The position numbers and the translations under genes are program-made. DNA of 2,037 bases from Escherichia coli (GTDB lineage: Bacteria; Pseudomonadota; Gammaproteobacteria; Enterobacterales; Enterobacteriaceae), in assembly GCF_003334255.1 (NCBI RefSeq), contig NZ_QOWU01000141.1; one strand, given 5' to 3'. The notes under the pieces were generated by a model that ran no database searches, was not told the origin of the DNA, and saw only the letters and a list, made by a program, of their open reading frames with translations. Each line of letters opens with the position of its first letter. The first letter of the stretch is position 1. Shown here one piece after another: positions 1 to 2,037 of this stretch.

Positions 1-846
1 AACCAGATGGACCCGGTGTACACGCCGGCGCGAAAAATCCACCTGTACCACTGCGACCATCGCGGCCTGCCGCTGGCGCTCATCAGCACGGAAGGGGCAA
101 CAGCGTGGTGCGCAGAATATGATGAATGGGGCAACCTGCTGAATGAAGAGAACCCGCATCAGCTGCAGCAGCTTATCCGGCTGCCGGGGCAGCAGTATGA
201 TGAGGAGTCCGGCCTGTATTACAACCGCCACCGCTATTATGACCCGCTGCAGGGGCGATATATCACTCAGGATCCGATTGGACTGAAGGGGGGATGGAAC
301 CTGTATGGATATCAATTGAATCCGATATCAGACATCGACCCCCTGGGTTTATCTATGTGGGAGGATGCAAAATCGGGGGCATGTACTAATGGTCTTTGCG
401 GCACACTATCCGCTATGATAGGTCCAGATAAATTTGATTCTATAGATAGCACCGCATATGACGCCTTAAATAAAATAAATAGCCAATCTATTTGCGAAGA
501 TAAAGAGTTCGCTGGTTTAATATGTAAGGATAATAGTGGCAGATATTTCTCAACAGCACCTAACCGAGGAGAAAGAAAAGGATCATATCCATTCAATAGC
601 CCTTGCCCTAATGGTACTGAGAAAGTATCAGCTTATCATACTCATGGTGCAGATAGTCATGGAGAATATTGGGACGAAATATTTTCAGGTAAAGATGAGA
701 AAATAGTTAAAAGTAAAGATAACAATATCAAGTCATTTTATTTAGGTACGCCCAGTGGTAATTTTAAAGCAATAGATAACCACGGGAAGGAAATAACAAA
801 CAGAAAAGGATTACCTAATGTCTGCAGAGTTCATGGTAATATGTAA
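1..846 (+). CDS. rhsA: Rhs-family polymorphic toxin, C-terminal portion (5' end lies upstream of the window): end of conserved core plus variable C-terminal toxin tip
   Basis: The frame is open from base 1 (aac cag atg...), so the M at 7 is internal. The translation ...[35 protein letters not shown]...DIDPLGL is the hallmark end of the E. coli Rhs core. GC is about 58% in bases 1-60 and about 32% in bases 421-480, the typical core/tip contrast. Stop TAA at 844-846. The rhsA symbol is inferred only from the yibA-like gene downstream; the core is nearly identical among rhs paralogues, so it could be another rhs copy. Confidence 0.9.
352..846 (+). other. Variable Rhs C-terminal toxin domain (Rhs-CT), about 165 aa, function unknown
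   Basis: Everything after DPLGL (codons at 337-351) is AT-rich and not recognisably core. It contains 7 cysteines ([37 protein letters not shown]) and a His-rich patch, [16 protein letters not shown] cannot assign a toxin family from sequence alone. Confidence 0.75.
806..810 (+). promoter_or_regulatory. Shine-Dalgarno-like AAGGA for the immunity ORF, located inside the toxin coding sequence
   Basis: AAGGA with a 7-nt spacer to ATG 818. Confidence 0.5.
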
Positions 847-1201
847 AAAAATATTGTTTAGGAACTGTGTCATTGTATCTTTGTTTGTTTTTACATACAA
901 CACATGGGCGCAGTGTAATAATAATATTAAAATAATGCGCAAGTATGAAAGTGAAGGTAAATATACCGTTAGAAATTTGGTTAAAAATAAAGCTATAGCA
1001 TTGGAATTAGCTGAGATATATGTTAAGAATCGTTATGGACAGGATGCCGCAGAAGAAGAAAAACCATACGAAATCACTGAGTTAACAACAAGTTGGGTTG
1101 TTGAAGGTACCATTCACTCAGACCAAATTGCTGGTGGGGTTTTTATTATAGAAATAGGCAAAAATGATGGGAGAATTCTGAATTTTGGCCACGGAAAATA
1201 A
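818..1201 (+). CDS. Putative cognate Rhs immunity protein (RhsI), possibly NTF2-fold-like, with a possible N-terminal signal peptide
   Basis: 127-codon ORF in AT-rich DNA, where chance ORFs are short. AAGGA at 806-810 sits 7 nt before ATG 818. It overlaps the toxin stop by 29 nt, the usual toxin-immunity arrangement. The N-terminus [23 protein letters not shown] is hydrophobic. The C-terminal part ([17 protein letters not shown]...PYEI...SWVVEGT...[22 protein letters not shown]) resembles the motif pattern I recall for NTF2-fold immunity proteins. Alternative starts are ATG 833 and ATG 935. Confidence 0.7.
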
Positions 1202-1292
1202 GTATGTAAGGATAATCAAACATCGTGTGCGCTGATGGCAGAGTAGGTGGAGGACTCCAGACAGTCAAACGATAGAAAAAGATAGCCTTTAT

Positions 1293-1305: not shown

Positions 1306-1689
1306 ATGTCAAATACATACCAGAAAAGAAAGGCAAGTAAAGAGTATGGTTTATATAATAAATGTAAGAAACTAAATGATGATGAATTATTTCGCTTACT
1401 TGATGATCGCAATTCCTTGAAAAGGATTTCATCTGCCAGAGTATTACAGTTAAGAGGGGGGCAAGACGCTGTTAGATTGGCAATTGAATTCTGCACTGAC
1501 AAAAATTATATCCGTAGAGATATCGGAGCATTTATACTCGGGCAAATATAAATTTGCAAAAAATGCGAAGATAATGTTTTTAATATTTTTAACAATATGG
1601 CATTGAATGATAAGAGTGCTTGCGTTCGAGCTACGGCAATCGAGTCAACGGCCAGGGAAAGATCATCAAAAGTTCACTTTTTGCACTAA
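1306..1689 (+). pseudogene. yibA: yibA-like HEAT-repeat protein (putative Rhs-associated immunity or lethality-reduction protein), disrupted by an in-frame stop and a 3' truncation
   Basis: Translation from ATG 1306 (MSNTYQKRKASKEYGLYNKCKKLNDDELFRLLDDRNSLKRISSARVLQLRGGQDAVRLAIEFCTDKNYIRRDIGAFILGQI) matches my recollection of the E. coli YibA N-terminus. TAA at 1549-1551 interrupts the frame. The same frame then continues as ICKKCEDNVFNIFNNMALNDKSACVRATAIESTA, still YibA-like, before changing to RERSSKVHFLH and stopping at 1687-1689. Full-length YibA is about 280 aa as I recall; only about 128 codons are present. Confidence 0.75.
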
Positions 1690-1784
1690 ATAATTCGCAT
1701 TTTATGTTTAAAAATTGAGATATTCCTTATTACCTGAAGCTGTTTTTTATTGCTTATACATGATCAAATACTCCTTACCTAATT

Positions 1785-1790
1785 AAGGAG
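1785..1790 (+). promoter_or_regulatory. Shine-Dalgarno AAGGAG for the ISAs1-family transposase
   Basis: AAGGAG with a 6-nt spacer to ATG 1797. Confidence 0.65.
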
Positions 1791-1796
1791 AACAAA

Positions 1797-2037
1797 ATGG
1801 AACTTAAAAAATTGATGGAACATATTTCTATTATCCCCGATTACAGACAAACCTGGAAAGTGGAACATAAATTATCGGATATTCTACTGTTGACTATTTG
1901 TGCCGTTATTTCTGGTGCAGAAGGTTGGGAAGATATAGAGGATTTTGGGGAAACACATCTCGATTTTTTGAAGCAATATGGTGATTTTGAAAATGGTATT
2001 CCTGTTCACGATACCATTGCCAGAGTTGTATCCTGTA
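1797..2037 (+). CDS. ISAs1-family transposase (H-repeat-associated protein), N-terminal 80 codons, 3' end beyond the window
   Basis: Translation [80 protein letters not shown] closely matches the N-terminus of E. coli H-rpt proteins (YhhI/YdcC/YbfD family) as I recall them. No stop occurs before the window ends. Confidence 0.9.

Follow-up and report, generated by a model that had tools for sequence, protein, structure and literature searches.

The rhsB gene of Escherichia coli K-12 ends in a stretch of DNA that is much poorer in guanine and cytosine (GC) than the preceding part of the gene. This raises the question whether the 3'-end of rhsB is a joint between two segments of different history and, if so, where this joint is located. 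The stretch of DNA analyzed here, in the following called the window, comprises 2037 bases and was found to be 100% identical to E. coli K-12 MG1655 in a sequence search. Its RefSeq features are the last 846 bases of rhsB, yhhH, a yibA-like pseudogene and the start of yhhI. According to the RefSeq annotation, the locus is flanked by the nik operon on one side and by yhhJ-rbbA on the other. All features of the window described below are on the + strand. The initial annotation of the window had pointed to a compositional break around 290-360 and taken it as the mark of a toxin/immunity cassette swapped onto a conserved rhs core. Our analysis supports this assumption by comparisons with the K-12 paralogues, the orthologs at the nikR-yhhJ locus, the copy numbers of core and tip, and the occurrence of related tips on other cores. 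Hence, 290-360 is very probably the seam of a mosaic rhsB, in which a GC-rich core found in multiple copies is joined to an AT-rich, single-copy cassette that has been exchanged.

The 3'-end of the rhsB core occupies bases 1..351 of the window and encodes RhsB residues 1131-1247 including the Rhs-associated core domain, as assigned by identity to K-12 and profile matches. NCBIfam model NF041261 (RHS_core) matched RhsB residues 1-1247 with 2643.8 bits (cut-off 2000) and TIGR03696 (Rhs_assc_core) matched residues 1170-1247 with 83.2 bits. Both matches end at window base 351, i.e. the hidden Markov models of the core stop exactly at the DPLGL motif. A further match was obtained to the Pfam family RHS (PF03527, 4.4e-16). 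The coordinates initially given for DPLGL, 331-351, are those of the longer string DIDPLGL, the motif proper being located at 337-351.

To locate the left border of the exchanged segment at nucleotide level, the 3'-ends of the five K-12 rhs genes were aligned and identities were counted. Over bases 13-299, identity to the window amounts to 97% for rhsA and 96% for rhsC. It is only 62% and 67%, respectively, over bases 300-351, and past base 352 it drops to the random level of 12-35%. Mismatches to these two genes are few up to base 288 and become dense from base 300 (300, 301, 303, 307-309, 314, 315 and onward). Megablast homology to the orthologous rhs gene of strain RIVM_C039629 stops at position 6299 of L001, which is window base 299. 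Paralogue and ortholog alignments thus place the homology breakpoint, which is the left junction of the exchanged cassette, at 299..300. The exchange point had been expected 'probably near base 300', and an alignment against rhs loci of other strains, proposed at that time for locating it, indeed gave this position. Likewise, the residues ahead of DPLGL differ from those of K-12 RhsA as noted before, which was borne out by the alignment of RhsA and RhsB. Over 300-351, rhsB was no closer to rhsD, the other carrier of a DUF4329 tip, than to the remaining genes. Identities were 62-69% to all four K-12 paralogues, and therefore the donor core is not identifiable from K-12 alone. Taken together, the seam is made up of three nested landmarks, which are the recombination joint at 299/300, the changepoint in GC content of third codon positions (GC3) at 300-381, and the boundary of the domain and of the predicted cleavage at 351/352.

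Copy numbers of the two parts differ strongly. Of 5,426 complete E. coli genomes, 3,888 contain the core end (1-299), with 19,850 places in total and a median of 5 per genome, whereas the tip together with yhhH (352-1201) was found at 3,063 places with a median of 1. The tip and yhhH were covered to at least 80% in 2,684 of the 5,426 genomes and were at least 99% identical in 2,642. At most about one in seven core ends carries this tip. Linkage of the same tip to all rhs cores had been named in the initial annotation as an argument against an exchange, and the opposite was observed, because there are about five core ends but only one such tip per genome. A probe spanning the junction at the nikR locus was also counted and found in 2,111 genomes at a coverage of at least 80%. 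This count was not used. It is lower than that of the tip carriers, and therefore the intergenic region evidently is variable and provides no clean denominator.

Orthologous loci carry different tips. In the strains RIVM_C039629 and WP8-S17-ESBL-08, the rhs gene at the nikR-yhhJ locus is 96% identical to K-12 rhsB until base 299 and then continues into a different tip. About 2.5 kb downstream, 87 nt from the end of the RhsB tip are retained in both strains, together with a yhhH gene that contains a frameshift and with yibA, which is intact and located at the corresponding position (L006 6540-7382 and L012 16483-17325). A further orphan fragment of rhs and a remnant of ISAs1 are located downstream as well. 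Within K-12, the tips of rhsA, rhsB and rhsC cannot be aligned with each other and encode different domains. Among the K-12 tips, that of RhsD is most closely related to the RhsB tip with 62-64% nucleotide identity, while the RhsD core is only 80% identical, and the rhsD immunity gene ybbC is an annotated paralogue of yhhH. DUF4329 tips were found on cores of the RhsA/B/C type, the RhsD/E type and the Salmonella type.

These observations bear on an explanation that does without any exchange. It would regard the tip as an old, vertically inherited sequence that diverged rapidly or drifted towards AT, e.g. as silenced DNA, and the break as the limit up to which the cores have been homogenized by gene conversion. 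Concerted evolution would indeed fit the 96-97% identity of the rhsA, rhsB and rhsC cores, and position 299/300 could equally be the edge of a conversion tract. However, unalignable tips with different domains are not diverged versions of one sequence, and homologous tips reside on different core lineages. Furthermore, identity of the RhsB tip reaches 99% or more in the 2,642 genomes mentioned above, and the catalytic residues do not vary among distant homologues. The tip is therefore conserved rather than decaying. At this locus, other strains have different tips and carry remnants of the RhsB tip downstream, and in the window a remnant of an rhsA-type tip is located behind the cassette. These findings also speak against vertical descent, which we consider very improbable.

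Several further variants of core and tip were encountered in the course of these comparisons. A contig of Salmonella enterica subsp. salamae (L008) contains two orphan DUF4329 tips in tandem (1161-1724 and 2298-2970), which are 70% and 75% identical to the window at nucleotide level. An Imm-NTF2-2 gene is located between them and both are situated downstream of a TseH/Imm58 pair. GC content of the tip on this contig is 0.39, well under that of the attached core fragment (0.52). In several strains, IS1 is inserted within or just after the RhsB tip (matches H1-H3). In strain 58-3 (L007 6076-6773), IS1 cuts the tip at approximately base 418, and the whole sequence from there to yhhJ has been deleted. 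Moreover, some E. coli carry in-frame internal deletions of rhsB (P0001, P0003 and P0006). In these, the first 66-72 residues or so are joined to the core end or to DPLGL, which is followed by the tip. The entire shell is missing from these proteins and the junctions map inside 1-351 of the window.

The break in base composition is real, very strong and situated in the region indicated initially. GC content is 58.3% for bases 1-60 and 31.7% for bases 421-480, exactly matching on recount the 58% and 32% reported before. By segment, it amounts to 59.0% (1-300), 45.8% (301-420), 34.7% (421-846) and 33% (yhhH), and it is still 35-36% beyond yhhH to the end of the window. In a likelihood scan for a single changepoint, the log-likelihood ratio (LLR) was 30.8. 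In 500 shuffles it averaged 2.7 and never exceeded 7.9, and thus chance does not account for the break. This contradicts a uniform GC profile, the other observation that had been named as speaking against an exchange. Considering all bases, the best changepoint was found after base 413, the 2-log-likelihood interval of support ranging from 292 to 431. For GC3 in the rhsB frame it was found after base 363 (support 300-381), where GC3 falls from 0.69 to 0.24 (LLR 30.4). When the entire gene is considered, the core has a GC3 of 0.72 and the tip one of 0.25.

The codon positions permit an evaluation of the assumption that the break only reflects protein composition, with a shell that needs GC-rich codons (Gly, Arg, Asp, Pro) and a toxin rich in Lys, Asn and Ile. 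Protein composition does have an effect locally. Throughout 361-420, GC content of codon positions 1 and 2 stays at approximately 0.55 due to Gly, Ala and Cys codons, which blurs the step in total GC. Since the first 23 or so codons after DPLGL are rich in these residues, a GC plateau results at 352-420, where positions 1 and 2 hold at 0.55 although GC3 is already at 0.3-0.4. This part of the RhsB tip (352-420) corresponds to a Gly/Cys-rich linker common to enterobacterial DUF4329 tips. Yet the biggest shift is that of synonymous third positions, from 0.69-0.72 (core) to 0.24-0.25 (tip), and in relation to this positions 1 and 2 change little. The break is strongest at synonymous sites, and therefore amino acid composition does not explain it. 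In addition, low GC content runs on through yhhH, intergenic DNA and yibA. Protein composition as the cause of the break is thus extremely improbable.

Two candidates for additional breakpoints were rejected. A GC model with two changepoints (257 and 427) was dropped, since the gain was 3.3 compared with the value of 5.2 reached by 95% of null simulations. A second recombination point near base 418 had seemed to be indicated by a match restricted to 352-418 (H60) and by the changepoint at 413. Actually, this match ends at the IS1 insertion and deletion in strain 58-3 and does not represent a natural junction of a tip.

On the right side, homology of the cassette to the related cassettes L009 and L010 ends about 8 nt past the stop codon of yhhH, near base 1208. 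A near-identical match to K-12 starts at base 1254 and comprises the final 32 nt of rhsA and then yibA. Alignment to K-12 rhsA thus identified 1254..1285 as the remnant of an rhsA-type tip, the earlier occupant of this place. Between these two limits of homology, a 45-nt spacer (1209..1253) separates the right end of the cassette from the older tip remnant. The remnant is followed by the yibA-like pseudogene for a HEAT-repeat protein (1306..1652, RefSeq and alignment), which RefSeq annotates as 'lyase / HEAT repeat' at 1306-1656. In this copy, a TAA at 1549-1551 interrupts the reading frame and the sequence breaks off at 1652/1653, where ISEc1 truncates it. NCBIfam PRK09687 covers residues 1-81 only of its product. 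The left end of ISEc1 (H-repeat) occupies 1653..2037 with the transposase gene yhhI starting at 1797, as supported by shared copies, NCBIfam transpos_ISAs1 and RefSeq.

From both junctions a sequence of events can be proposed. A single-copy cassette of approximately 0.9 kb, extending from base 300 to about 1208, was very probably joined to the core through homologous recombination in the last 50 nt or so of core-like sequence. It encodes the second DPxGL motif including the predicted scissile bond, the Gly/Cys-rich linker, the DUF4329/Tox-JAB-2 domain, and the overlapping yhhH gene. In doing so, the cassette very probably replaced nearly all of the earlier rhsA-type tip, leaving behind the last 32 nt and the partner gene yibA, which was truncated by ISEc1 afterwards.

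Some features of the right side were recorded in addition. The spacer at 1209-1253 shows a raised local GC content of about 47-48% in the covering 60-nt windows and matches neither the cassette nor the rhsA-tip remnant. A Chi site (GCTGGTGG) is located inside yhhH at 1130-1137 (+), where it results from conserved I-A-G-G codons. Such a site was present in only 4 out of 200 shuffles of the window, and it lies about 120 nt ahead of the junction at 1253/1254. The left end of ISEc1 at base 1653 begins with CAGGGAAAGATCATCA..., a sequence common to the ydcC and ybfL H-repeat copies by rhsE and rhsC (L005 from about 5683 onward and L003 from about 8700 onward).

What does the cassette encode? The C-terminal tip of RhsB comprises 164 amino acids (352..846) and matches Pfam family DUF4329 (PF14220, 2e-39). 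This family was equated with Tox-JAB-2 and paired with Imm-NTF2-2 by Zhang et al. 2012 (PMC3482391). In an exhaustive search, 757 cluster representatives of DUF4329 were found at E-values up to 0.001, with the domain at the C-terminus of carriers ranging from about 150 to more than 7,000 residues in length. In the window, the DUF4329/Tox-JAB-2 domain is encoded by 448-804 and contains the JAMM-type residues E1299, H1343-T-H1345, S1359 and D1362. Counted within the tip, E52, S112 and D115 were found in 83 out of 83 aligned sequences, H96 and H98 in 82 and T97 in 81. The predicted fold of the tip is of the JAB/MPN (JAMM) type, and the closest folds are isopeptidases. No solved structure was detectable by sequence for Tox-JAB-2/DUF4329. 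As the conserved E, H[ST]H, S and D correspond to the JAMM signature, the RhsB tip most likely is a zinc-dependent hydrolase of the JAMM type. The profile match, the conserved residues and the predicted JAMM fold agree with membership in Tox-JAB-2/DUF4329. The tip also resembles the published Tox-JAB-2 toxins (PMC3482391) in domain, signature (E, H[ST]H, S, D), C-terminal place on an RHS carrier, and immunity pairing.

The putative cognate immunity gene yhhH (818..1201, RefSeq) encodes a protein that matches Imm-NTF2-2 (PF15631, 3.4e-26). The gene shares 29 nt with the end of rhsB, and this overlap has been kept in an orphan cassette that is 74% identical. This conserved linkage suggests that the toxin and YhhH form a cognate pair. 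Thus, RhsB displays the typical organization of an Rhs polymorphic toxin with a full-length RHS core profile, a core domain ending in PxxxxDPxGL, and a variable tip followed by an immunity gene.

With regard to the activity of Tox-JAB-2, the published statements are predictions only, namely of a nuclease (PMC3482391) and of an 'RNase' (PMC10469887). Hydrophobic, signal-like N-termini were observed in YhhH, in YbbC (L004 5582-5950) and in a homologue 68% identical to YhhH (L009 2302-2685). In these proteins, the signal-like segment precedes the Imm-NTF2-2 domain, and YbbC carries a lipobox-like LFAC. Enterobacterial DUF4329 tips have six Cys in common. Together with the isopeptidase-like closest folds, these features provide a hint at the periplasm, and action in this compartment would better fit a peptidase than the published predictions of a nuclease or RNase. 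The DUF4329/Tox-JAB-2 tip may therefore be a periplasm-acting JAMM-type (iso)peptidase rather than a cytoplasmic nuclease or RNase, although we regard this as a doubtful and tentative proposal.

The core part encodes a YD-repeat shell which presumably ends in a C-terminal aspartyl-autoprotease plug. In related Rhs proteins, such a plug is an aspartyl autoprotease that cuts after PxxxxDPxG[L/W/F] and thereby frees the encapsulated toxin, and mutation of either aspartate blocked both cleavage and killing (PMC8765631, PMC8636562). In P. protegens RhsA, the catalytic dyad D1324/D1346 shows a spacing of 22 residues (PMC8765631). Two such motifs can be read from the window. The first is DPIGL (271..285) with D1221 at 271-273, and the second is the PxxxxDPxGL motif formed by RhsB residues 1238-1247 (322..351) with D1243 at 337-339. 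Since D1221 and D1243 are also 22 residues apart, they are predicted to be the first and second catalytic aspartate of an RhsB autoprotease, with a predicted self-cleavage site after L1247 (351/352).

The crossover at 299/300 sits between the two aspartates, DPIGL being located on the core side and DPLGL on the cassette side. Therefore, the first aspartate stems from the resident core, and the second aspartate and the predicted scissile bond come with the cassette. By analogy to the related proteins, the shell would enclose the folded tip, and the D1221/D1243 dyad would release it by cleavage after L1247. In the target cell, the freed tip would then be active as a zinc-dependent hydrolase of the JAMM type, from which the producer would be protected by YhhH.

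Homologues of the RhsB shell are, among others, Tse5 (3e-127), P. protegens RhsA (1e-85), Tse15 and Tre23. Compared with the Rhs effectors of type VI secretion systems (T6SS), namely P. protegens RhsA (7q97), P. laumondii Rhs1/Tre23 (7pq5), P. aeruginosa Tse5 (8cp6) and A. baumannii Tse15 (8uy4), RhsB has the YD-repeat shell in common (phmmer 1e-127 to 1e-38). It also shares the PxxxxDPxGL boundary and two aspartates with the 22-residue spacing of P. protegens RhsA. In those effectors, the toxin is encapsulated, and self-cleavage after DPxG[LWF] sets it free. In contrast to them, RhsB is without a significant PAAR domain and has no neighboring vgrG or eag. The PAAR_motif model matched with E = 0.18 and covered residues 2-20 only, followed by DUF6531. 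The N-terminus of RhsB (L001 2611-2700) starts with MSGKPAARQGD and thus literally contains 'PAAR', and the match corresponds to the last 20 positions or so of the Pfam PAAR model. The PAAR domain of RhsB therefore looks vestigial or truncated. In the RefSeq annotation, no vgrG, eag or T6SS genes were found beside rhsB, its neighbors being the nik operon, yhhJ and rbbA. Hence, neither an N-terminal PAAR domain nor adjacent vgrG, eag or T6SS genes, each of which would indicate delivery by a T6SS, were found for rhsB.

It is well established that rhs genes are composite, and the present locus belongs to the example on which this concept was founded. Hill and colleagues, as summarized in PMC2935791, described the K-12 rhs elements as a G+C-rich core of approximately 1200 amino acids followed by an A+T-rich, divergent 'core-extension' of 130-177 amino acids. 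The window represents one of these elements, rhsA-E, since it is rhsB itself, with core, 164-amino-acid extension, small downstream open reading frame and H-repeat (ISEc1), and it is of the same kind. Differences between Rhs tips and shells in GC content and codon bias have also been reported (PMC8636562). The GC contrast between core and tip, a low-GC trough downstream, and the displacement of tips were described by Jackson, Thomas, Parkhill & Thomson 2009 (PMC2935791). Our findings agree with their model of C-terminal displacement with respect to exchangeable tips, the low-GC trough downstream, remnants of older tips behind the present one, and different tips per strain at one locus. Different tips on orthologous cores with earlier tips downstream were observed in L006 and L012, and the rhsA-tip remnant in the window likewise represents an earlier tip. 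The model stresses exchange within a clade, whereas DUF4329 tips occur on both the RhsA/B/C and the RhsD/E core subfamilies.

Several observations do not fit easily into the proposed history and mechanism of rhsB and have to be weighed against them. Firstly, total GC does not drop in one clean step but proceeds from 58% (241-300) via 43-50% (301-420) to 32% (421-480), with two visible steps near 300 and near 420 that span about 130 bases. Of the sharp break claimed initially for 290-360, over a few tens of bases, the GC3 changepoint at 363 (support 300-381) is real, but total GC takes about 130 bases to fall.

Secondly, the core itself is compositionally atypical, and the contrast alone therefore has no power to tell which side is foreign. 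Its GC content is 62% with a GC3 of 0.72, compared with 55-59% and 0.64-0.67 in the flanking nik and rbbA genes, i.e. half of the GC contrast between core and tip is contributed by the core, which is itself above its neighbors. The anomaly might thus reside mainly in the core, with a high GC content due to foreign origin or to GC-biased conversion, for which about 5 copies per genome leave room, and with a tip that is ordinary AT-rich accessory DNA. Nevertheless, the tip (36.6%, GC3 0.25) is about 20 points under the flanking genes in GC content and farther from these neighbors than the core is. This explanation of the contrast is unlikely though clearly worth considering. It is partly true and not in conflict with tip exchange, which the strain comparisons establish independently.

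Thirdly, a displaced tip is expected to keep a core fragment if insertion takes place via a circular intermediate, and no core fragment precedes the rhsA-type tip remnant in the window. Unlike in the displacement model, the rhsA-type tip of K-12 rhsB was not shunted intact but almost wholly deleted, leaving 32 nt. Therefore, the K-12 event looks like replacement with deletion rather than simple insertion and shunting, or a later deletion removed the rest.

Fourthly, with a vestigial PAAR domain and no T6SS neighbors, delivery of RhsB in K-12 is doubtful, and delivery is the weakest link of the proposed mechanism. K-12 is generally regarded as lacking a T6SS. Finally, in the searchable literature only in silico mentions of RhsB-CT/YhhH, RhsD/YbbC and Tox-JAB-2 were found, and no experimental work. 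A mosaic rhsB with an exchanged tip remains the reading that we prefer.

The junction of core and tip in rhsB is a textbook feature that was published long ago and is not a discovery. It rather serves as a positive control, in which a reader without any tools correctly recognized the mosaic joint from composition alone and put the exchange point no more than one or two bases away from the position given by homology. Our results restate the established picture, in which Rhs toxins gain diversity as AT-rich toxin/immunity cassettes are exchanged on a delivery shell that is conserved and GC-rich. To this picture they add junctions at base level for the K-12 rhsB cassette and the remnant of the tip that it replaced (299/300, about 1208 and 1254) as well as counts across the pan-genome. 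The position of the crossover between the two predicted catalytic aspartates suggests that the predicted cleavage site travels with the toxin. If this is true, each tip would bring along its own half of the autoprotease active site and its own scissile bond.

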